Positions 3,901 to 22,613 of a stretch of DNA of 24,132 bases are shown in pieces. Both the position numbers and the translations under genes were made by a program. This stretch comes from a virus. Lineage: Duplodnaviria > Caudoviricetes. The notes beneath the pieces were generated by a model, which was given only the letters and a program-made list of their open reading frames with translations, had not been told where the DNA came from and did not search any database. Location: IMG/VR virus record IMGVR_UViG_3300005332_000012, positions 1-24,132 of that record; one strand, written 5' to 3'. The first letter of the stretch is position 1. Each line of letters opens with the position of its first letter.

Positions 3901-4136
3901 CCAGGCTCATCCACGGCACCCGCCCCACCTCGCAAGGCCCCGCCCACGGCAACGGCCGCCCGCCGCAGAAGTCCACCGCCGGCTACCACGGCAACCCCCT
4001 CTGGCCTGGCATCACCTGGGGGTTCACTGCCCGGTGCTCGTGCACGTGGGCGCCACGCGCGGGCGAGTACCAGGTCAAGGTCCGCGACCGCGCCTGCAGC
4101 GTCCACGGCGGGTACCAGGGGGCGGGCCGTGGGTGA
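3897..4136 (+). CDS. Hypothetical protein (79 aa), CxC...CxxH
   Basis: GTGA overlap with the upstream stop; fills the gap to the methylase; high GC3. Confidence 0.65.
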   Translation: MTRLIHGTRPTSQGPAHGNGRPPQKSTAGYHGNPLWPGITWGFTARCSCTWAPRAGEYQVKVRDRACSVHGGYQGAGRG

Positions 4137-8867: not shown

Positions 8868-9386
8868 ATGGCCAGGCCCACGAACGAGGCGCGCGTCCTG
8901 ATCGCGCAGCGCCGCACGCGGGTCCTGGCCATGCGCATCGAGAACGTCCCCTACGAGCAGATCGCCGCCGCCCTCAACATCAGCGAGGCCGTCGCCGAGA
9001 AGGACTACCAGCGGGCACGCGACGAGGCGGCAGCCCAGCTCGACGCGACGACCGCGAAGGCGCGCGAGCTGGAGCTGCTGCGGCTCGCCGCGATGGAGCG
9101 CGAGGCGTGGGCCGTCCTGCGTCGCAGGCACATCGTCATCCAGCAGGGCAAGGTCGTCCGCGACGAGGACGACAACACGATCGAGGACGACGCGCCCGTC
9201 TTGCAGGCCATCGACCGGCTGGAGCGCATCAGCGCCCGCCGCGCCCGCATGCTCGGCCTGGACGCCCCGGCCAAGGTGGAGGTGAGCGGGGAAGTTGACG
9301 ACGCGATCGCCGCTCTTGCCTCCCGGCTGGGAGCAGTGGAACCTGGCGGAGAAGCGCAAGCTGCTGGAGACGCTGCAGCGGGCTGA
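8868..9386 (+). CDS. terS: Terminase small subunit
   Basis: N-terminal HTH (RRTRVLAMR...YEQIAAALNIS) and the AIDRLERISARRARMLGLDAP motif; immediately upstream of and overlapping TerL. Confidence 0.85.
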   Translation: MARPTNEARVLIAQRRTRVLAMRIENVPYEQIAAALNISEAVAEKDYQRARDEAAAQLDATTAKARELELLRLAAMEREAWAVLRRRHIVIQQGKVVRDEDDNTIEDDAPVLQAIDRLERISARRARMLGLDAPAKVEVSGEVDDAIAALASRLGAVEPGGEAQAAGDAAAG

Positions 9387-10797
9387 GAGCCAGCGTGCGC
9401 CCCGTGACCCGGCCGGGTGGGCGCGCTACCGGGGCCTGCACTTCTGGTCCGCGCAGCGCGCCATCGCGGCCAGCGTCGCGGCGAGCAAGCGGACCGCCGT
9501 CCGGGCCGCGCACGGCGTCGGCAAGAGCTTCACCGCGGCGGCGCTGGCCGCATGGTGGGTGGACACGCACCCCGGCGGCCTCGTCGTCTCCTCGGCGCCG
9601 TCCGCCCACCAGGTGCACGGCATCCTGTGGGAGGAGATCCGCGGCCTGCACGCCCGGCTGTCCCTGCCTGGCCGCGTGCTGCTGAACGACACGTGGATGC
9701 TCGGCGGCAGCCAGGCCGGGTTCGGCCGCAAGCCCCCCGACGCCGCCGCGGGCTCGGATTTCGACCCCAGCACGTTCCAGGGCTACCACAGGACCGGCGG
9801 CGTGCTCGTCATCCTCGACGAGGCGGGCGGCCTGCCCGAATGGCTGTGGACGGCCGCGGAGAACATCACCACGACGGACAACAGCCGTATCCTGGCGATC
9901 GGCAACCCGGACAACTCCGGCTCGCACTTCGCGGAGGCGTGCGCGCCGGGCGCGAAGGGCTGGGCGCAGTTCCGCATCAGCGCGTTCGACTCGCCGAACT
10001 TCACGGGCGAGCCGGTGCCGGCCGAGGTGTCGGCGGCGCTGGTGACCAGGAACTGGCAGCTGGACCGCCTCGACGACTGGGGCGAGGGCAGCCCGCTGTA
10101 CGTGTCGAAGGTGCTGGCGGAGTTCCCCGCGGACAACCCGCAGCAGGTCGTGCCGACTGGGGCGCTGGCGACGTGCCGGATACCGGAGCCGCGGGCGGCG
10201 TCGGAGCTGGTGCCGGTGGAGCTGGGCGTCGACGTCGGCGGCGGGTCGGACCTGACGGTGGCGCGGGAGCGGCGCGGCGTCCGCGCGGGCCGCAGGTGGG
10301 CGGTCCGCACGTCCGACCCGGAGGCGGCGGCCCGGATGATCCGCGACGCGATCAACGAGTGCGGGGCGACGTCGGTGAAGGTCGACGCGACGGGCGTCGG
10401 CTGGGGCATCGTCGGCCTGCTGCGGGACTGGGGCAGGCGCGGCGACCACCAGGCGCAGGTGCACGCGGTCATGGTCGGGCAGGCCAGCAGCGAGCCGCTG
10501 AAGTACGCCAACCTGCGGGCGGAGCTGTGGTTCGTGATCGGGCGGCAGGGCAGCCAGCGGGGAGAGTGGGACCTGTCCGCGATGGAGGCGGCCGACACGG
10601 CGGCCGGGGAACTGCTGCTGCCGCGCTGGCACCCGGACGCCAAGGGGCGCGTCGTCATCGAGGCGAAGGACGACATCAGGGCGCGGACGGGCGGCAAGTC
10701 CCCGGACGACGCCGATGCCCTGCTGCTCGCCTATTTCGTCCCTCGCGACGCGCAAGGCTCGTACTGGCAGGCGCTGCAGGCTGGCAAGCTCCGGTGA
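9295..10797 (+). CDS. terL: Terminase large subunit
   Basis: Walker A AAHGVGKS, Walker B VILDEAG, coupling motif IGNP; RNase H-like nuclease acidic motifs GVDVG, VDATGVG and SPDDADA. Confidence 0.95.
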   Translation: MTTRSPLLPPGWEQWNLAEKRKLLETLQRAESQRAPRDPAGWARYRGLHFWSAQRAIAASVAASKRTAVRAAHGVGKSFTAAALAAWWVDTHPGGLVVSSAPSAHQVHGILWEEIRGLHARLSLPGRVLLNDTWMLGGSQAGFGRKPPDAAAGSDFDPSTFQGYHRTGGVLVILDEAGGLPEWLWTAAENITTTDNSRILAIGNPDNSGSHFAEACAPGAKGWAQFRISAFDSPNFTGEPVPAEVSAALVTRNWQLDRLDDWGEGSPLYVSKVLAEFPADNPQQVVPTGALATCRIPEPRAASELVPVELGVDVGGGSDLTVARERRGVRAGRRWAVRTSDPEAAARMIRDAINECGATSVKVDATGVGWGIVGLLRDWGRRGDHQAQVHAVMVGQASSEPLKYANLRAELWFVIGRQGSQRGEWDLSAMEAADTAAGELLLPRWHPDAKGRVVIEAKDDIRARTGGKSPDDADALLLAYFVPRDAQGSYWQALQAGKLR

Positions 10798-10864: not shown

Positions 10865-12763
10865 GTGAGCCGTCGCGCCGCCCGTAGCCGAGGGCGCCAG
10901 CGCGCGGCGAAGGCCGTCCCGCCCTCAGCCGGCGGCGGCGCCACGTTCACCGCCGACCAGGTCACCGCGATGATGACGGCCCAGCGGCAGCTCAGCAGCG
11001 GCAACAGCCGCGCGACCCCGCTGGCCACGTCGCCGCTGTGGGAGACCGCCCCGTTCGGCCCCGGCCGCAGGCTCATCCCCGCGCCGATCAACGTGCCCCG
11101 GGCCGACACCGGCCGCGCCGAGCCGCGCCTGTGGGAGTTCCCCGTCTCGTGGAACCTGCAGATCGACGACCGCTGGCACGTCCCGTGGCACGTTTTGCAA
11201 AGAGCCGCTGATATGCCACTTTTTAGAAAATGTATTGAAAGGCGCAAGAACGTCTGCCAGCTGGACTTCGCGGTCACCGTCGACCCGCGCGCCGTCGCGG
11301 CGGAAGTGGCGGCGTCCGGCGCGGCCAAGCAGGACGTGGAGTCGGCGCTGCGGAAGAAGTACATCTCCGAGATAGCCAGGATCAGCGACTGGCTGCAGGT
11401 CCCGGACCGGAAGAATGACCTGGACTGGCCGGGGTGGACGTCGCTGCTGATGGAGAACCGCCTGAAGTTCGATGCGGCGGTCGTCTACCCGCGGCGCACC
11501 TACGGCGGTGACCTGTACAGCTTCGAGGTCATCGACGGGAAGACGATCAAGCCGCTGATCGACGAGTACGGCGGCCGTCCCCTGCCCCCTTTGCCAGCGT
11601 TCCAGCAGGTGCTGTTCGGCTTCCCCAGGGGCGAGTTCACGGCGCCGACGGACGGCCCGGACGGCAGGCCCGTCGACGGCGGCTTCCCGTCTGACCAGCT
11701 GTACTACGAGCGCAGCATCTACCGCAGCGAGTCGCCCTACGGCATGTCGCCGACCGAGATCGCCCTGTTCGATGGCTTGCTGTGGATGCGGCGCATGGGC
11801 TGGATGATGAGCGAGTACACCGAGGGGGTAGCGCCGACGGGGCTGCTGGAGACCAGCCCGGAGACGGAGTGGACGCCGAGGCAGTGGGAGGACTGGGCGC
11901 GGGCGCTGAACGACCACCTGTCCGGGAACACGGCCGAGCGGCACCGCTGGCCGCTGATGCCGCCGGGCGTCAAGTTCATCCAGGGCGAGGAGCCCGACGC
12001 GAAGTACCACCCCGACTACGACCTGTTCCTCATCAAGCTCATCGCCGGGGACTTCGGCCTGCCCGCGTCGGAGGTGGGCTTCACGGAGGCGGGCGCCCTG
12101 GGCGCGAGCTTCCATGAGGGCGAGGAGGACATCCTCGAGCGCGCCACCCGCAAGCCCGACCGGGACTGGCTCGGCAGGTACGCGACGAAGCTGTGCCGCC
12201 GCGAGCTGGGGATGCCGGCGGCGCTGCAGGTCGAGGTGCTCGGCCTGGAGTGGGAGGACGAGGCGGCGGCGGACGCGATCGCCGACCAGCGGGTGCGCGG
12301 CGGCCGGGCGACGCTGAACGAGGACCGCGCGAAGCGGGGCGAGCCGCCGTACAACTTCGCCGCGGCGGACATGCCGATGCTGATCACGCCGCGGGGCATC
12401 GTGTTCATCGAGGGCGCGGAGAAGGCGGCGCCGCCGGGGGAGCTGATCGGCCCCGTGCAGGCGCCGAAGGAGGGCGAGCCGCCGGAGGGCCAGCAGGCTG
12501 ACGCGGGCAGCGAGGGCGGCGGCCAGGACGGCGAGGGGGAGCCGCAGCCGAAGGCCCCGCCCGCGTCCAAGAGCGGCGAGCTGGCCGCATTGCGGAAGTG
12601 GCTGGCTCGCCACCCGTCGGCGTCGCGCCCGTTCGCGTGCCAGGCGCTGACGGCGGCGGACGCCCCGCAGTACGCGGATGACCCGCGCGTCCTGCTGAAG
12701 GACGGCCCGGGAAAAGCGCTCGCCGGGACTGGCCCGGCTGGCAGAGGGACCTGGACCTCGTGA
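10865..12763 (+). CDS. Portal protein
   Basis: Position after TerL; motifs IDGKTIKPLID, YGMSPTE, YTEGVAP and TLNEDR...G-PP typical of phage portals. GTG 10865 is chosen for SD spacing (track start 10859). Confidence 0.92.
   Translation: MSRRAARSRGRQRAAKAVPPSAGGGATFTADQVTAMMTAQRQLSSGNSRATPLATSPLWETAPFGPGRRLIPAPINVPRADTGRAEPRLWEFPVSWNLQIDDRWHVPWHVLQRAADMPLFRKCIERRKNVCQLDFAVTVDPRAVAAEVAASGAAKQDVESALRKKYISEIARISDWLQVPDRKNDLDWPGWTSLLMENRLKFDAAVVYPRRTYGGDLYSFEVIDGKTIKPLIDEYGGRPLPPLPAFQQVLFGFPRGEFTAPTDGPDGRPVDGGFPSDQLYYERSIYRSESPYGMSPTEIALFDGLLWMRRMGWMMSEYTEGVAPTGLLETSPETEWTPRQWEDWARALNDHLSGNTAERHRWPLMPPGVKFIQGEEPDAKYHPDYDLFLIKLIAGDFGLPASEVGFTEAGALGASFHEGEEDILERATRKPDRDWLGRYATKLCRRELGMPAALQVEVLGLEWEDEAAADAIADQRVRGGRATLNEDRAKRGEPPYNFAAADMPMLITPRGIVFIEGAEKAAPPGELIGPVQAPKEGEPPEGQQADAGSEGGGQDGEGEPQPKAPPASKSGELAALRKWLARHPSASRPFACQALTAADAPQYADDPRVLLKDGPGKALAGTGPAGRGTWTS
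12709..12742 (+). promoter_or_regulatory. Candidate -1 programmed frameshift signal (portal to MuF-like fusion)
   Basis: In-frame G GGA AAA heptamer at 12709-12715, 6-nt spacer, hairpin GCCGGG-ACTGG-CCCGGC at 12722-12738. The -1 frame is open into 12760..13506. Confidence 0.75.
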
Positions 12764-13506
12764 GCATCTACGCGGCCGAGGTCCGCCGTGCAGTCGCGGG
12801 ATCCGTCGACGCGCAGAAGCTCGCTGAGGCGTGGCAGGCGCTGCACCCTAAGGACGTGTCGAAGGCGGTCCCGGCGGCGCTCTCCGCCTTTCTCAGCCGC
12901 GCCGCGCGGGCGATCATGGGTGCGCTCGGCCCGGTGATGACGCGGCTGCTGACGGAGGCGTGGGTGCTCGGCAACCGCTCCGCCCTCGCCGCCATGGAGA
13001 ACCTGAACCCGGACTGGGGGAACTGGACTCCGGGCGACTACGCGGCGGCGGCGCAGATCGCGGGGCCGGGGCTGCGGCAGCTGCTCGGCGAGGCCGGGAT
13101 CCGCATCAAGAGCATCACGGACTCGCGGCTGGAGGAGCTGTCGGCGGTGCTGGAGGCGACGCTGCGGTCCGACGCGATCCTGCGGACGCCGGGGACTGAG
13201 CCGCTGCCGCCGTTCCTGTCCGTCGGCGATCTCGCCGGGCGGCTGCGGACGGTGCTGGACAATCCCGATCGCGCCGAGCTGGTCGCCCAGGCGGAGATCG
13301 CCCGCGCGCAGGCGACGGCCGCCCGGCAGGCGTACGCGGAGTCCGGCCGGACTGAGGTCGAGGTGTCGACGGCGGCCGATGACCGCGTGTGCCCCGTGTG
13401 CGAGGCGGCGGAGAAGCTCGGCCCGCACCCCATCGGGCAGCCGCCGATGGTGCCGCTGCACCCGCGCTGCCGGTGCGCTGAGCTGCCCGTGCTGGAGATG
13501 GCATGA
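12760..13506 (+). CDS. Head morphogenesis protein, MuF / SPP1 gp7-like (coding probably extends up to about 12715)
   Basis: RAELVAQAEIARA...DDRVCPVC...PLHPRCRC C-terminal signature; follows portal. Confidence 0.88.
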   Translation: MSIYAAEVRRAVAGSVDAQKLAEAWQALHPKDVSKAVPAALSAFLSRAARAIMGALGPVMTRLLTEAWVLGNRSALAAMENLNPDWGNWTPGDYAAAAQIAGPGLRQLLGEAGIRIKSITDSRLEELSAVLEATLRSDAILRTPGTEPLPPFLSVGDLAGRLRTVLDNPDRAELVAQAEIARAQATAARQAYAESGRTEVEVSTAADDRVCPVCEAAEKLGPHPIGQPPMVPLHPRCRCAELPVLEMA

Positions 13507-13799
13507 GCTGGCTTCCGCACCTGCTTGGCATCGACAACGAGGCGGGCCGCTGGTACGCGTTCTGGTCAGGTCCCGGCTCGGACGTCGGCGAGCTGGCCAT
13601 CATCGGCGCCATCTACGGCGCCTACCGCAAGCACGCCTGCCATGAGCACCGCTGCTGGCGCCTCGGCCGCCACCCGGTCGCCGGGACGCCGTACGTGGCC
13701 TGCAGGAAGCACCACCCGGGCGTGCCCGACAAGGCGCGGCGGGGCGACATCGCAAGGGCGCAGGAGAAGGCGAGGGGCCAGTGGCCAGGACAACCGTAA
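13503..13799 (+). CDS. Small membrane protein with Cys/His C-terminus
   Basis: ATGA overlap and GGAG SD; hydrophobic LAIIGAIYGAY; HACHEHRC...CRKHHP. Confidence 0.7.
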   Translation: MSWLPHLLGIDNEAGRWYAFWSGPGSDVGELAIIGAIYGAYRKHACHEHRCWRLGRHPVAGTPYVACRKHHPGVPDKARRGDIARAQEKARGQWPGQP

Positions 13800-14287
13800 C
13801 GCCGGACGGCACCGTCACCGTCGACACCGGCGGCAGCGCGGCCAAGGCGACATGGGACGGGGAGAGCGTCGCCGGGGTGCTGGTCAAGGCCAGCGACGAG
13901 CGCCGCTACACGCTCACCGTCGCCTACCCCGCCGACCGGGCGGACGTTGCCGTCGCGGCGGATGGCCACCGGGATTTCGCGAGCAAGGCGGCCGTCGAGG
14001 ACGCCGCCTGGTCCTACCTGGTCAAGTCCCCGCAGGTGGGGCTGTGGCACGCTGACGGCACCGACGGGGCCGGGGCGGTCGTGGAGTCCTACGTCTACCG
14101 GGGGCCGGACTGGCAGCCGGACGGCAGCGGCTACGTCGTCAAGGCGGGCGACTGGCTGCTCGGGATCGTGTGGGAGCCGGAGGCGTGGGAGCACGTCAAG
14201 GCGGGTCGCATCGGCGGCGTGTCGATGCAGGGATCGGCGCGGCGGCGCACGCCGACCGCTGAGGCAATCGCGGCACTGAGGGAGTAA
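13781..14287 (+). CDS. XkdF-like prohead (capsid maturation) serine protease domain
   Basis: RYTLTVAYP...DGHRDF...VGLWH...VVESY...VKAGDWLLG...WEHVKAGRIGGVSMQG, with candidate catalytic His (LWH) and Ser (GVS). Confidence 0.85.
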   Translation: MARTTVTPDGTVTVDTGGSAAKATWDGESVAGVLVKASDERRYTLTVAYPADRADVAVAADGHRDFASKAAVEDAAWSYLVKSPQVGLWHADGTDGAGAVVESYVYRGPDWQPDGSGYVVKAGDWLLGIVWEPEAWEHVKAGRIGGVSMQGSARRRTPTAEAIAALRE

Positions 14288-14289
14288 CC

Positions 14290-15489
14290 GTGGACGTCGC
14301 CATCACCGAGCTGGAGAAGATCGAGGCGACCCGCGTCGACGGCGTCGCGGAGCCCGCCAACGGGATACCGATCCTGCTGCTGAAGAGCGTCGCCAAGGCG
14401 GACGGCATGGGCCACCCGCCGATGACGGGCACGCACAGCCACTCCCACCCCGCCTTTGACGGCCCGGACGGCGACGGGGACGGGCAGCACGGCCACGAGC
14501 ATGACCACGACGGCGACGCTGACCACCACCACCCGCACGCGGCGAAGGCCGCCGTGTTCGACCGTGACGCGGCCCTGGCGGCGGTCAAGGCGATCGTCGG
14601 CCGGAAGGTGGACGAGTCGCCGGACATCGCCGGGGGCACGGCGGTGCTCTCGCAGATCGCCGACCTGATCATCGCCGAGGCGCAGGAGCTGAAGTCGGGG
14701 CAGGCGGGGGAGATCGCCGACATCCAGCAGCTGGCGTGCGCGGCGGAGATGATCTGGTGCTGGCGGACGGGCGAGGAGTCGGTCGCGTCCGGGTCGGTGA
14801 TGCCGGCGACGGCGCTCATGCAGTCGGCGGCATGGGACAGCGACGACCCGGCGGAGATCGCCAAGGCGTTCCGCGCGCTGGGGAGGTCGCTAGGGCTGCC
14901 CGGCATCGACGCCAAGGCTGACGCGATCGCGAAGGCGGACCTCTCCGCGGCCGGGCGGCGGAAGTCGGCCGATGCCGGGCACGCGCTGCCGGACGGCAGC
15001 TACCCGATCGAGAACGAGCACGACCTGCACAGCGCCGCCGTCCTCGCCCGCAGCGGGCACGGCGACGTCGCGGCGGCCAGGCGGCTGATCGCACGGCGAG
15101 CGAAGGAGCTGAGAGTGAGCAACCCCCTTGACAGCGACGACGACACGAGCAAGGGCCAGTTGGCAGGAGAGGGCACCAGCATGGATACTGTGGTCAAGGG
15201 AAGCGACGACCTGGCTAAGGCCGTCGCGGACGCTGTCACGAAGGCCGTTGCCCCGCTAGAGGAGCGCCTGGAGGCGCTCGGCGGAGAGCTGGCGAAGGTG
15301 AAGGCGACACCGGTACCCGGCGGGCCAGCGCAGTCCGCCGCCGGCAGGCAGCCAACTGCCGCCGACGGCACGCGCGCCGCCAAGGCCGCCTACTACGACC
15401 AGTGGGCAGAGCTCGTCTCTGACCCCAAGGTGGCCGACGACTACCGCAAGCTCGCCGCCCAGGAACGGGCGCAGGTCACCGCACCGTGA
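14290..15489 (+). CDS. Capsid scaffolding / maturation protein
   Basis: Lies between protease and capsid; N-terminal RVDGVAEPAN, His-rich tract, ALPDGSYPI module, Ala/Lys-rich coiled C-terminus with PVPGGP. Confidence 0.75.
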   Translation: MDVAITELEKIEATRVDGVAEPANGIPILLLKSVAKADGMGHPPMTGTHSHSHPAFDGPDGDGDGQHGHEHDHDGDADHHHPHAAKAAVFDRDAALAAVKAIVGRKVDESPDIAGGTAVLSQIADLIIAEAQELKSGQAGEIADIQQLACAAEMIWCWRTGEESVASGSVMPATALMQSAAWDSDDPAEIAKAFRALGRSLGLPGIDAKADAIAKADLSAAGRRKSADAGHALPDGSYPIENEHDLHSAAVLARSGHGDVAAARRLIARRAKELRVSNPLDSDDDTSKGQLAGEGTSMDTVVKGSDDLAKAVADAVTKAVAPLEERLEALGGELAKVKATPVPGGPAQSAAGRQPTAADGTRAAKAAYYDQWAELVSDPKVADDYRKLAAQERAQVTAP

Positions 15490-15524: not shown

Positions 15525-17435
15525 ATGCCCAGCACCGCAGAGCTCTTCGGCGGACACCGCGGCCACTACCGCGCCGGCGGCCCGCTGCGCCCGGACTACA
15601 CGGGCACCCAGGTAACCGAGCAGTTCGAGGCGTACAAGGCCGCCTTGCGGAAGGCGCACGCCGACCATGACGCGGGCACGGACGTCCTTGTCCCCTACGA
15701 GGGCATCCGCAAGAACGCCCGGCCGAGCAAGGCGCAGCACGAGGAGCGGATGCGCGTCCTGGAGACGCTGCGCAAGTCGCTGCCCGCCGACCAGCTGGCC
15801 GCGATGGACGCGGGCCTCGCCGACTTCTCCGCCCTGGTCGCGAAGGACTGGAACCAGGCGTACCCGGAGACCGGCGGCTACAACACGCAGCTCGCCCCGT
15901 ACAACCTCGAGGACCCCAGCAAGAAGCTGGTGCCGCGGCAGACGCCGCTGTGCAACTCGGTGCCGCGGGACAACAGCGGCAAGGGCTCGGCGCTGCAGTT
16001 CCGGCGGATCCTGGGCTGGACGAACGCGAACGTCGGCGGGGTCGCCGACCAGGCGCCGTTCCTCAGCTCGGAGTTCCCGACGGCGCAGGGCATCAGCCTG
16101 CCGCAGTTCGGCGGCCAGTCGACGGCCACGGGCGGCGTGCAGGGCACGACGGGCGTGCCGCTGCGCCGCGGCCAGAAGATCAACTACGCGGCCGACTCCA
16201 AGACGATCAACTACACCGAGCTGAGCCTCAGCGACTCCGTCTCCTGGAAGGCGCAGTACATCGGGCAGGGCTTCGAGGACATCCGCCAGCTGTCCCACAC
16301 CGCGACTTTGTGGGCGCACAAGCTCGGCGAGGAGAAGGCGCTGCTGTACAGCCGCGGCCCGTCCGCGAACGGCTACACCGGGCCGATCTCGGCGCCGTCG
16401 GGCCTGGCGGCGACGTCCAGCGGCGGGGCCGGCGGCGGCAGCATCCCGCTCGGCACCTACAGCGTGTTCGTGACCGCAGTCGGCGGCTGGGGCGAGTCCG
16501 CGCCGTCGAACATCGTCACCACGACCGCGATCAGCGTCAGCCCCGGCACGCTCACGATCACGACCTGGCCCACGCTGCCGTCCGGCGCGAACGGCTGGAA
16601 CGTGTACGTGTTCACCGCCGCGACCGGCAACTTCTTCTTCCAGACCTTCGTGGCCGCGGGCACGCCCGCCGCGGTCAACTCCGGCCTCGTGCTGACCAGC
16701 TACAACAGCTCGTCCGGCACGCTGGCGCAGAACGCCGCCGACTCCAGCGCGAACGTCAACGGCTACGACGGGTTCCTCACCGTCCTGCTGAACCCGTCGG
16801 TGTCCGGCTACGTCGCCACCTACGCGGCGAACGCGACGGCCGCCAACTCGGTCAACAGCATCGCGGGCCTCGGCCAGTCCGGCGCCCCGGCGCAGGGCGA
16901 CACGCCGTGGCAGACGATGTTCAAGACGCTGTACGGCGCCGGGGTCGAGCCGGGCAACTACGCCCAGTCCGGCACCGCCACGTCGTACGGGCAGAAGCTC
17001 CTCGCCGACCCGGACATCGTCTACGTCGACGGCGTCATCAGGAGCGCGCTCGGCACGTTCGTCGAGCACGGCGGCGGCACCGGCCTCTCGAGCGGCAATC
17101 CGGGCGGCTACCGGATCATGCTCACCCGCGACGAGATCAGCGGCGTGCAGGTCGGCAGCGTCGTCACCGGCATGGTGAACCAGACGACCGGCAAGGCCGT
17201 GGACCTGGAGGTCCACCCGTTCATGCCGCTCGGCGTGTCGTTCGCCTGGTCCAAGACGCTGCCCGTCCCCGACAGCGAGGTCGCCAACACGTTCGCGGTC
17301 AACAACGTGGTCGACTACATCGGCTACGACTGGCCTGACATCCAGTTCACCTACGACTTCAGCACCTACCAGCTGGGGACGTTCGTGCCGTACGCCCCCG
17401 CGTGGAGCGGGGCGATCGTGGGGCTGCAGGCGTGA
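15525..17435 (+). CDS. Major capsid protein with N-terminal pro-region and Fn3/Ig-like insertion
   Basis: Position after scaffold, GAGGG SD and strongly biased codons; YNLEDPSKKLVPRQTPL, EEKALL-S-G and VHPFMP motifs. Confidence 0.85.
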   Translation: MPSTAELFGGHRGHYRAGGPLRPDYTGTQVTEQFEAYKAALRKAHADHDAGTDVLVPYEGIRKNARPSKAQHEERMRVLETLRKSLPADQLAAMDAGLADFSALVAKDWNQAYPETGGYNTQLAPYNLEDPSKKLVPRQTPLCNSVPRDNSGKGSALQFRRILGWTNANVGGVADQAPFLSSEFPTAQGISLPQFGGQSTATGGVQGTTGVPLRRGQKINYAADSKTINYTELSLSDSVSWKAQYIGQGFEDIRQLSHTATLWAHKLGEEKALLYSRGPSANGYTGPISAPSGLAATSSGGAGGGSIPLGTYSVFVTAVGGWGESAPSNIVTTTAISVSPGTLTITTWPTLPSGANGWNVYVFTAATGNFFFQTFVAAGTPAAVNSGLVLTSYNSSSGTLAQNAADSSANVNGYDGFLTVLLNPSVSGYVATYAANATAANSVNSIAGLGQSGAPAQGDTPWQTMFKTLYGAGVEPGNYAQSGTATSYGQKLLADPDIVYVDGVIRSALGTFVEHGGGTGLSSGNPGGYRIMLTRDEISGVQVGSVVTGMVNQTTGKAVDLEVHPFMPLGVSFAWSKTLPVPDSEVANTFAVNNVVDYIGYDWPDIQFTYDFSTYQLGTFVPYAPAWSGAIVGLQA

Positions 17436-21550: not shown

Positions 21551-21991
21551 ATGAGGACGACGCTGGAGTCCGGCGCGTGGGTCGAGCACGTGCCCATCGG
21601 CGAGCTGAAGGGCAAGCACAAGCGCGCCGTGGAGGCCGCCGGCAAGCCCCCGGTGAGCCCCGAGGCGTTCGACGGCGACGGCCAGGTCGACGTGCGCGCC
21701 GTGCTGTCCGGGATGGACATCTCATCGTGGCTGGCCGCCAGGCAGGACGCCCTCTGGGCGGTCCTCATCGAGGCATGGAGCTACGACCTGCCGGTGCCGG
21801 GGCTGGACGGCGGCGCCGTCGTGAACGCGGAATCGCTGGGGGAGCTGCCGCTGGGCGACTACGAGGAGATCGAGGCGCTGTTCGCCCCGTACGCGGCGAA
21901 GCTGGCGCGCCGCGCCGACCCAAAAGGGGCGATTACCTCCGCCTCAAATGGGTCGTCTCCGGCAAGGGCCGGCGGCTCCCGGAGGGGCTGA
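21551..21991 (+). CDS. Tail assembly chaperone (gpG-like)
   Basis: After the tail tube; GAGGAG SD; LIEAWSYDLPVP motif; slippery heptamer near the 3' end. Confidence 0.85.
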   Translation: MRTTLESGAWVEHVPIGELKGKHKRAVEAAGKPPVSPEAFDGDGQVDVRAVLSGMDISSWLAARQDALWAVLIEAWSYDLPVPGLDGGAVVNAESLGELPLGDYEEIEALFAPYAAKLARRADPKGAITSASNGSSPARAGGSRRG

Positions 21992-22149
21992 GCTGGGAGG
22001 CATACGACGACATCGTCCACATCATCAGGTTCGGGATCCCGCCGGCGGCCGGGATGGGCCGGGAGGAGCTGCCGCTGGAGGTCTACACCTGGCTGATGCC
22101 GGTGCAGATGGCGATCGACAAGGCGAGGGAGGAGGCGATGGCGAGATGA
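21919..22149 (+). CDS. -1 frameshift extension of the tail assembly chaperone (gpGT-like, about 199 aa fusion)
   Basis: In-frame C CCA AAA at 21919-21925; the -1 frame reads RGDYLRLKW...EELPLEVYTWL...AMAR to TGA 22149, coupled to the next ATG. Confidence 0.85.
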   Translation, partial: PKRGDYLRLKWVVSGKGRRLPEGLSWEAYDDIVHIIRFGIPPAAGMGREELPLEVYTWLMPVQMAIDKAREEAMAR

Positions 22150-22613
22150 CCCCGCTGGAGCTGCCCGTCCGCCTCAAGCGCATCGCGGACGAGGTCCGCG
22201 ACCGGGCCGCCCTTGACGCCGCCGACGCGATGGCCCAGTCCTACCAGCGCAGCGTGGTCCGGTCGATGCGCGGCCCGTCACCGTCGCCGCCGGGCACGCC
22301 CCCCGCGCGCCGCACGGGCACGCTGGCGCGGTCCGTGCGCCCCGAGCCGGCCGTCCCCGCCGGGGCCGGGCGGGCGCGCTCCAGCGTCGCCCCGCATACG
22401 GTCTACGCGCGCATCCAGCAGCTAGGCGGCCACGTCTACCCGGTGCGGGCGAAGGCGCTGCGCTGGACGGACAAGAGCGGCGTGCACTTCGCCCGCCACG
22501 TCTACCTGCCGAAGCGGCCGTACATGGTGCTGACGTACGCCCGCGCCAGGGAATGCCACGACGCCGCGAAGGCCGCCGTCGCCAGGGTCATCCGGGAGGC
22601 GCTCCGTGGCTGA
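22146..22613 (+). CDS. HK97 gp10 / Mu gpG-like virion morphogenesis (neck/tail completion) protein
   Basis: PARRTGTLARSV...VYARIQQLGG...LPKRPYM signature; GGAGG SD and ATGA overlap. Confidence 0.8.
   Translation: MTPLELPVRLKRIADEVRDRAALDAADAMAQSYQRSVVRSMRGPSPSPPGTPPARRTGTLARSVRPEPAVPAGAGRARSSVAPHTVYARIQQLGGHVYPVRAKALRWTDKSGVHFARHVYLPKRPYMVLTYARARECHDAAKAAVARVIREALRG

Follow-up and report, generated by a model that had tools for sequence, protein, structure and literature searches.

In a GC-rich tailed phage, a slippery heptamer conserved where portal meets MuF very probably directs −1 frameshifting into a portal-MuF fusion

The DNA analyzed here, the window, is the whole 24-kb contig (24,132 nucleotides (nt)) of a GC-rich tailed soil phage, IMG/VR record IMGVR_UViG_3300005332_000012. 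Our subject is the junction between its portal gene and the gene for a MuF/gp7-like head protein, which overlap on the plus strand in different frames. The portal gene (10865..12763), in the zero frame, extends from GTG 10865 to the TGA ending at 12763 and encodes 632 amino acids (aa). Its product matches PHROG 2662, a family named portal (E 4e-43, profile positions 21-483 of 717), and shows a weak match, under the cutoff, to Pfam Phage_portal. The second open reading frame (ORF; 12760..13506), 248 aa long when counted from GTG 12760, has a C-terminal CxxC..HPxCxC motif and is recognized by PHROG minor head/head morphogenesis families (E down to 7e-11) and, under the cutoff of 29.6 bits, by Pfam Phage_Mu_F (PF04233; E 7.5e-05, 23.9 bits), which is present in many homologs. 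It lies directly 3′ of the portal gene, the position described for MuF/gp7-family genes in PMC5576092.

Near its end, the portal frame reads CCG GGA AAA GCG, which places the slippery heptamer G_GGA_AAA (12709-12715) in phase and followed by a conserved G (12709..12716, plus strand); most relatives have C_CCA_AAA_G instead. The portal stop falls 15 codons past this slip site. The last stop in the −1 frame (12679..12681, plus strand) bounds the region in which a shift could occur to 12682-12760. From 12682, the −1 frame is open, contains no ATG, GTG, or TTG until 12760, and reads ..GKSARRDWPGWQRDLDL-VSIY.. into MuF; among relatives, the −1 stop lies at most 6 nt from the heptamer in 25/50. The two heptamer codons are rare, AAA accounting for 2/115 Lys codons and GGA for 10/311 Gly codons in eight genes of the window (3194 codons). 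These genes contain just two phased X_XXY_YYZ patterns, and across the window's plus strand GGGAAAA or CCCAAAA is found only twice, at 12709 and 21919. The predicted products are a 632-aa portal and an 880-aa trans-frame protein. A first-pass annotation of this DNA, made from the letters alone, had claimed the phased heptamer, the rarity of its codons, the −1 frame that opens into MuF without a start codon, product lengths of about 632 and 880 aa, and ACT, GCT, and AGA codons in the portal tail; all of these were confirmed, the last by simple presence in the sequence. A contig of run X1 (depth 2.2), which spans 12577-12762 and is possibly from the source sample and hence not independent, matches the window with zero differences or gaps. 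Among RNA data sets, none was listed for 12000-13600, which speaks neither for nor against expression.

Related loci were gathered using the extended MuF, a MuF-body alignment, a portal alignment, a fusion protein, and a bridge-peptide pattern; the heptamer was used in none of the searches, and the bridge peptide in some of them. The 272 sequences included 222 with portal and then MuF matches; their 150 distinct junctions form 140 clusters at 90% identity. Classified by MuF frame, these junctions are a −1 overlap (66 clusters), a single in-frame ORF (62), a +1 overlap (4), or apart (8). A phased heptamer is present in 55/66 clusters of the −1 class, namely CCCAAAA (44), which is also the heptamer of the Lactobacillus phage A2 frameshift, GGGAAAA (6), AAAAAAG (2), AAAAAAA (1), CCCTTTT (1), and CCCTTTA (1). 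It is also found in 57/62 in-frame fusions, as CCCAAAA (55), GGGAAAA (1), and CCCTTTC (1, in L088, probably by chance). Conservation of the heptamer in homologs, which had been proposed as a check, is therefore observed. When 13 low-GC clusters are dropped, leaving those with a GC content of at least 0.55, C/G-type heptamers are present in 50/56 (−1) and 53/59 (fused) clusters, where the portal background predicts 0.05 and 0.13; the counts are over related, non-independent sequences. Because the sequences are related, dicodon choice is the sharper control. Elsewhere in the same ORFs, CCA-AAA is used for 3/138 Pro-Lys dicodons and GGA-AAA for 4/161 Gly-Lys dicodons, and conservation of the heptamer is therefore not a protein-level effect. 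Moreover, a CCC/GGG swap alters the amino acid yet leaves the slip pattern intact (seen in 7 clusters, with 6 changes on the tree described below), the base 3′ of the heptamer is G in 50/50 −1-type and 53/56 fused junctions, and the slip site is retained down to 24-26% portal-core identity. The site is thus conserved at the nucleotide level beyond the encoded amino acids, which is a criterion for programmed ribosomal frameshifting (PRF).

The segment separating the slip site from the annotated MuF start, the bridge (GKSARRDWPGWQRDLDL; 12709..12759, plus strand, −1 frame), is predicted to be the conserved N terminus of the MuF domain. A W[PA][GA]WxxD motif is found 3′ of the site in 43/50 −1-type and 42/56 fused-type clusters, which answers the earlier call to look for the bridge peptide upstream of annotated MuF starts. 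Its Pro, Gly, and Asp codons vary synonymously in the MuF frame, and in-frame fusions encode the same peptide; the bridge is therefore coding in the −1 frame, and this frame is open and constrained as coding sequence from the slip site onward, as a PRF site demands. In alignment A5, which holds 78 of the 92 heptamer-bearing full-length sequences, 14 columns are invariant, 4 of which hold the Lys, the two Trp, and the Asp; this invariance is partly owed to the choice of sequences, since 14 divergent ones, most of them lacking the motif, were left out. PHROG 2662 also matches the −1-frame ORF, at profile positions 448-710 and beginning inside the bridge; as its 717 positions span both ORFs, this family includes fusions. 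An AlphaFold model of MuF with the bridge (mean predicted local distance difference test (pLDDT) 89.4, predicted template modeling score 0.88) has its first helix at residues 11-30 (pLDDT 96 for 11-20), starting at the second Trp, residue 11. The annotated MuF start corresponds to residue 18, 7 residues past the start of this helix, so the bridge is predicted to be part of the MuF domain. A search of solved structures with profile A5 gave no meaningful match (best E 0.18).

In the fused genes, the heptamer occupies the same Pro-Lys just 5′ of the MuF motif, and a −1 shift there reaches a stop after 1-69 residues (median 7.5), before MuF. The gp3 genes (products of ∼1000 aa) of two cultured Arthrobacter phages carry C_CCA_AAA_G, at codon 738 in Sonali and codon 739 in Mufasa8, with a −1 stop 11 codons on, and AAA represents 3/35 and 4/36 of the Lys codons in these genes, respectively. 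A −1 product would end in ..PKSAYPSVLEG in Sonali and in ..PKSTYPSLVEG in Mufasa8. Sonali gp3 is annotated as "portal and MuF-like fusion protein." Both genes (L272:2144-5131 and L273:2134-5136) encode an extra domain between portal and MuF, named MutT/NUDIX in one record, and carry an unannotated phased CCCAAAAG 5′ of MuF. A portal-core tree was built from the 131/142 rows with enough core, 105 of which bear a heptamer; it has no outgroup and hence gives no direction of change. Polarity, i.e. whether MuF is reached by the shift or in frame, changes at least 6-7 times on this tree, and monophyly of the −1 type is rejected (approximately unbiased test, p-AU 3.6e-7, on a 40-row subset). The clade to which the window belongs has full support and comprises 37 −1-type junctions. 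Lone −1 leaves of metagenomic origin may stem from faulty assembly; L137, which has the −1 geometry and no start codon at the junction, is an isolate genome, that of Actinomadura harenae.

Other relatives depart from these two layouts. In two sister loci where MuF is in the +1 frame (L022:4016-4023 and L223:4949-4956), a phased CG_CGA_GAA is present at the equivalent site, its rare CGA and GAA codons following a GGT-rich stretch, and in L223 an ATG lies just 3′. From these two sequences, CG_CGA_GAA is a candidate −2 slip site (CGA to CGC, GAA to GAG). Querying with L022 MuF to find further +1-class loci gave just L022 and a single distant match. In L021 (∼3940-4020), CCCAAAAG is in frame in an ORF separate from the portal ORF, 5′ of the MuF motif, where a shift would trim MuF from a protein other than the portal. 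The distant Polewnik portal has no heptamer 5′ of its MuF part. Two further distant genes, both AT-richer, are uninformative, THSA-485A with 9 phased heptamers along the gene and MMB025 with 2 and no MuF match. Several portal relatives (P0145, P0200, P0204, P0213, P0223, P0230, and P0236-P0238) carry variable inserts, which by eye look intein-like in P0145 and ParB-like in several others. The only portion of MuF at the end of P0236-P0238 is its C-terminal Cys/His part.

Taken together, these findings make it very likely that the window site is a real, functional −1 frameshift site. We are confident, if short of certain, that at the conserved heptamer some ribosomes shift −1 at the portal/MuF boundary, so that both a 632-aa portal and an 880-aa portal-MuF fusion would be made. 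Slippage would be in tandem, of tRNA-Gly from GGA to GGG (in relatives, tRNA-Pro from CCA to CCC) and of tRNA-Lys from AAA to AAA, and might be helped modestly by upstream Shine-Dalgarno (SD)-like pairing and by 3′ structure. Its purpose may be a portal ring of mixed composition that brings MuF into the prohead on some of its subunits only, as a covalent equivalent of SPP1 gp7 bound to its portal. The recoding proposed in the first-pass annotation thus gains support from the conservation of heptamer and bridge, and has to be qualified in two respects: the fusion may or may not be the minority product that it was taken for, and relatives run the site in the opposite polarity, with MuF in frame and putatively removed by the shift, and restart of translation at the portal stop may coexist with it.

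Several observations weigh against frameshifting, beginning with the junctions that lack the site. In the −1 class, 11/66 have no heptamer: L203 and ten low-GC clusters (L096, L106, L111, L112, L119, L122, L123, L129, L133, and L142), a clade with plain ATGA coupling in which MuF is made separately and whose sister is L121 (A7 run, no start codon). Among fusions, 5/62 were scored as lacking it by script, and two of these, L053 and L264, do show the site. The window's own putative stimulators are modest. A hairpin (GCCGGG/CCCGGC; 12722..12738, plus strand) is found 6 nt after the heptamer, with the spacer, the 6-bp stem, and the extension past one mismatch that had been described, and is a weakly supported candidate stimulator. 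Its fold is no better than that of shuffled sequences (z −0.83 to −1.48 over four stretches), and the 36-nt fold percentile in the window is 0.275; against gene background, the median percentile for the 36 nt 3′ of the site is 0.28 in the −1 class and 0.05 in the fused class, so that a better-than-background fold is mainly a feature of the fused class. The complete 6-bp stem is present in just 17/43 motif-bearing −1-type clusters, including all 5 GGGAAAA clusters with the motif. The covariation that had been suggested as a check comes down to one stem pair, which alternates between G-C (17), A-U (10), and G-U (5). A control slid by +1 scores higher (0.142 versus 0.099), the test for independent pairs gives p 0.5, and RNAalifold on 18 sequences did not recover the stem. 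On these results, the hairpin is not established as a conserved covarying element. Upstream, a weak SD-like AAGGA (12698..12702, plus strand), 6 nt 5′ of the heptamer, is a possible stimulator by its anti-SD pairing; in the window, it ranks at percentile 0.56 against synonymous resampling, i.e. without enrichment. Across relatives, generic anti-SD pairing upstream of the site does beat synonymous-codon resampling (median percentile 0.06 for −1, n = 50, and 0.10 for fused, n = 56), a point in favor of frameshifting, and GGT and GAT are over-used there, e.g. GGT for 22/59 Gly codons versus 169/2062. The best SD-like 8-mers end 4-8 nt 5′ of the heptamer versus the 9-14 nt reviewed in PMC5009743, possibly reflecting another convention.

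The conserved start codon at the portal stop also weighs against frameshifting, as it would allow MuF to be made without a shift in the window's clade. A start is found within seven codons after the conserved Asp in 42/43 motif-bearing −1-type junctions, compared with 8/42 fused junctions and a background of ∼30%. In the window, this is the GTGA overlap (12760..12763, plus strand), where the portal stop could be coupled to a restart giving a free, shortened MuF of 248 aa. The claim that GTG 12760 has a poor SD stands in that GAGGG (12744-12748) is 11 nt away, and falls short in that GTG overlaps the stop and its upstream anti-SD energy of −6.7 equals that of most other scored starts in the window. 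The alternative in which MuF comes only from coupled restart at this GTG, heptamer and bridge being relics of an ancestral fusion, draws on the overlap, the SD energy, the near-universal start (in several junctions replaced by ATG or TTG at other positions), and the low-GC clade with plain ATGA coupling. Nevertheless, we regard it as improbable. It leaves unexplained the heptamer of in-frame fusions, it would cost MuF the first part of its first predicted helix, and it does not fit the retention of the bridge W/W/D and a rare-codon heptamer over the 37-member clade. Furthermore, the 55 −1-type junctions with a heptamer comprise 26 with an NTG/TGA overlap, 15 with another nearby start, and 14 with none (no start codon within −13..+11 of the portal stop), and these 14, all outside the window's clade, need the shift for MuF. 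A start near the stop is also partly mechanical, because a TGA stop puts NTG in the −1 frame. The earlier suggestion that independent initiation at 12760 would speak against the shift is therefore answered both ways, the nearby start appearing conserved in the clade and the start-less junctions elsewhere keeping the heptamer. Phages of the window's clade probably make some free MuF with a shortened N terminus as well, by restarting at the portal stop, and restart at or near 12760 probably coexists with frameshifting rather than refuting it.

The remaining explanations fare worse. It is very unlikely that the rare-codon run is a ribosome pause that serves portal folding or exposure of a cleavage site with the frame unchanged: in fused genes, the site does lie at a domain boundary where no frame change is needed and the −1 tails are short and of unconserved length (1-69 aa), yet a pause gives −1-type genes no access to the conserved bridge, and the CCC/GGG triple swap and the alternative heptamers preserve X_XXY_YYZ rather than specific rare codons. 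Even less probable is slippage of RNA polymerase adding an A at the A4 run, which through two mRNAs and standard decoding would yield the same two proteins. dnaX and insertion sequence (IS) elements use either route (PMC5009743), and L099, L101, and L121 have runs of at least 7 A; the window run is, however, only 4 A, against ∼9 A/T cited for efficient slippage in the same review, and slippage of the ribosome is favored by the codon phase, which is constant, by the XXX part, and by the SD-like signal. An assembly error or a recent inactivating indel in one fused gene, as an uncultured contig, a PHROG 2662 family of fusions, and possibly erroneous single −1 leaves might suggest, is scarcely credible given the same −1 geometry in 37 related junctions and in isolate A. 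harenae and the gap-free X1 contig; this conservation rules out an assembly error at the window locus.

Frameshifting at the heptamer may extend to the whole family of phages with an XkdF-type protease. We think it likely that this family doses MuF on the portal ring by one frameshift switch, whose polarity has flipped repeatedly via single-base indels 3′ of the slip site, that many annotated fusions are mixed rings, and that L022 and L223 may use a −2 site. If the 1-2 copies known for SPP1 gp7 apply, the fusion would be a minority in the window and shifting would have to be frequent in the fused type, with which the apparently stronger stimulators of the fused class would fit; if shift efficiency is similar in both types, very different MuF loads must be tolerated. 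A recoded portal would make the DNA-packaging vertex hetero-oligomeric, explain how fused portal-MuF genes keep MuF off some subunits, and bear on the dosing of MuF cargo into virions, including MuF-linked toxins of other phages. It would also change the annotation of many actinophage and prophage genes. A signal that lengthens the product in some lineages and truncates it in others would be unusual for recoding.

The second heptamer in the window, a phased C_CCA_AAA_G (21919..21926, plus strand), lies near the end of ORF 21551-21991, which follows a probable major tail gene and occupies the tail assembly chaperone position. A 76-aa −1 ORF (to 22146) opens at this heptamer. Site and −1 peptide are kept in 4/4 homologs (L279-L282; 44-47% identity, two of them near-identical). 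ORF 21551-21991 has no match in phage records, and its Atlas matches are hypothetical viral proteins only. From its gene position and G/GT-like layout, this is likely the frameshift site of the tail assembly chaperone. The phage thus has the same type of signal in its chaperone-position gene as in its portal gene, which supports the portal site. Further downstream, an HK97 gp10-like neck/tail completion ORF (21948-22613) is 3′ of the chaperone-position gene, an unusual order; the 5′ third of this ORF overlaps the −1 ORF opened at 21919 and is probably non-coding.

The portal and MuF genes are preceded by a terminase gene (9295-10797) and followed by a gene for an XkdF-type head protease (13781..14287, plus strand; Pfam Peptidase_S78_2, E 2.7e-13) and by further head and tail genes. 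A 636-aa ORF at the position of the major capsid gene (15525-17435) is long for a capsid protein, and its sole match is PHROG 13692, of unknown function. In the protease and the next ORF (13781-15489), Lys is followed by Ala or Ser in 6/6 and 13/21 cases, respectively, versus 2/13 in TerL and 1/16 in RecT, and at many portal/MuF junctions a Lys-Ala is present a few residues 5′ of the slip site. Such Lys-Ala/Ser pairs are possible maturation-protease sites able to release MuF. This portal has named relatives in prophages of Actinomadura, Amycolatopsis, and Streptosporangium, the last two with the fused type of junction, which suggests that the host of the window phage is actinobacterial.

PMC5009743 reviews frameshifting in dnaX and in phage genes for tail chaperones, capsids, and tails, and GGGAAAA is a reported −1 site in actinophages Bush and TM4 (PMC11749239, PMC4626039). 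Within the literature searched, supplements (including PRFect predictions) and most subscription papers aside, no paper on a portal-gene frameshift was found. The word portal occurs 0 times in 300,000 of the 449,034 characters of PMC5009743 and in the main text of PMC10885494, and a portal frameshift is not described in the covered parts of PMC7911831, PMC10885494, PMC3483164, PMC10299305, and PMC5221750. The mechanism is thus known from tail chaperone, capsid, and dnaX genes, and what is new, within that literature, is the portal as the recoded gene.

The closest known system is the tail chaperone G/GT of λ, Bush, and TM4, which likewise has a phased heptamer of the same class near the end of a morphogenesis gene and a C-terminal extension (PMC5009743, PMC11749239, PMC4626039), its site setting the product ratio (PMC5009743). 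Unlike G/GT, the recoded gene of the window is a portal, the extension is a MuF domain, relatives show the reverse polarity, and a restart codon is conserved. Since the site is in the portal gene and not in a G-like chaperone gene between major tail and tape measure, it works alike without belonging to that family. In IS3-family elements, the downstream ORF is made by coupled restart. Their OrfA/OrfB/OrfAB set, whose frameshift part is covered in PMC5009743, resembles the possible three-product layout, although it concerns a transposase and not virion assembly. T3/T7 gp10, Lactobacillus A2, and Listeria A118/A500/PSA similarly obtain two virion proteins from one gene, a fraction of them with an extra domain (PMC5009743), but these extensions are mostly Ig-like surface domains on high-copy proteins, whereas that of the window is an internal MuF/gp7-like domain at the portal vertex. 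The fused polarity has its model in Escherichia coli dnaX (tau/gamma), where the long product is made in frame, shifting leads to a stop close by, and an SD-like stimulator lies upstream (PMC5009743); dnaX differs in being a cellular gene with the heptamer A_AAA_AAG, and no conserved stem has been shown for the portal site. SPP1 gp7, a portal-bound MuF-family protein that goes to the prohead in 1-2 copies and aids infection, is encoded separately from the portal gp6 and binds it non-covalently, with no recoding reported (PMC5576092, PMC6316719); "frameshift" occurs 0 times in the part of PMC5576092 covered. Finally, portal-MuF fusions have been reported without a frameshift (PMC7302621). The single-ORF fusions of Microbacterium phages EA3/EA5/EA8/EB and of Sonali and Mufasa8 (gp3, homologous to both window ORFs) share the domain order of the predicted trans-frame protein; a single ORF is found in 62/140 relatives and not in the window, where MuF is in the −1 frame. 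These genes are annotated as plain fusions with no frameshift, yet both Arthrobacter genes carry a phased C_CCA_AAA_G.

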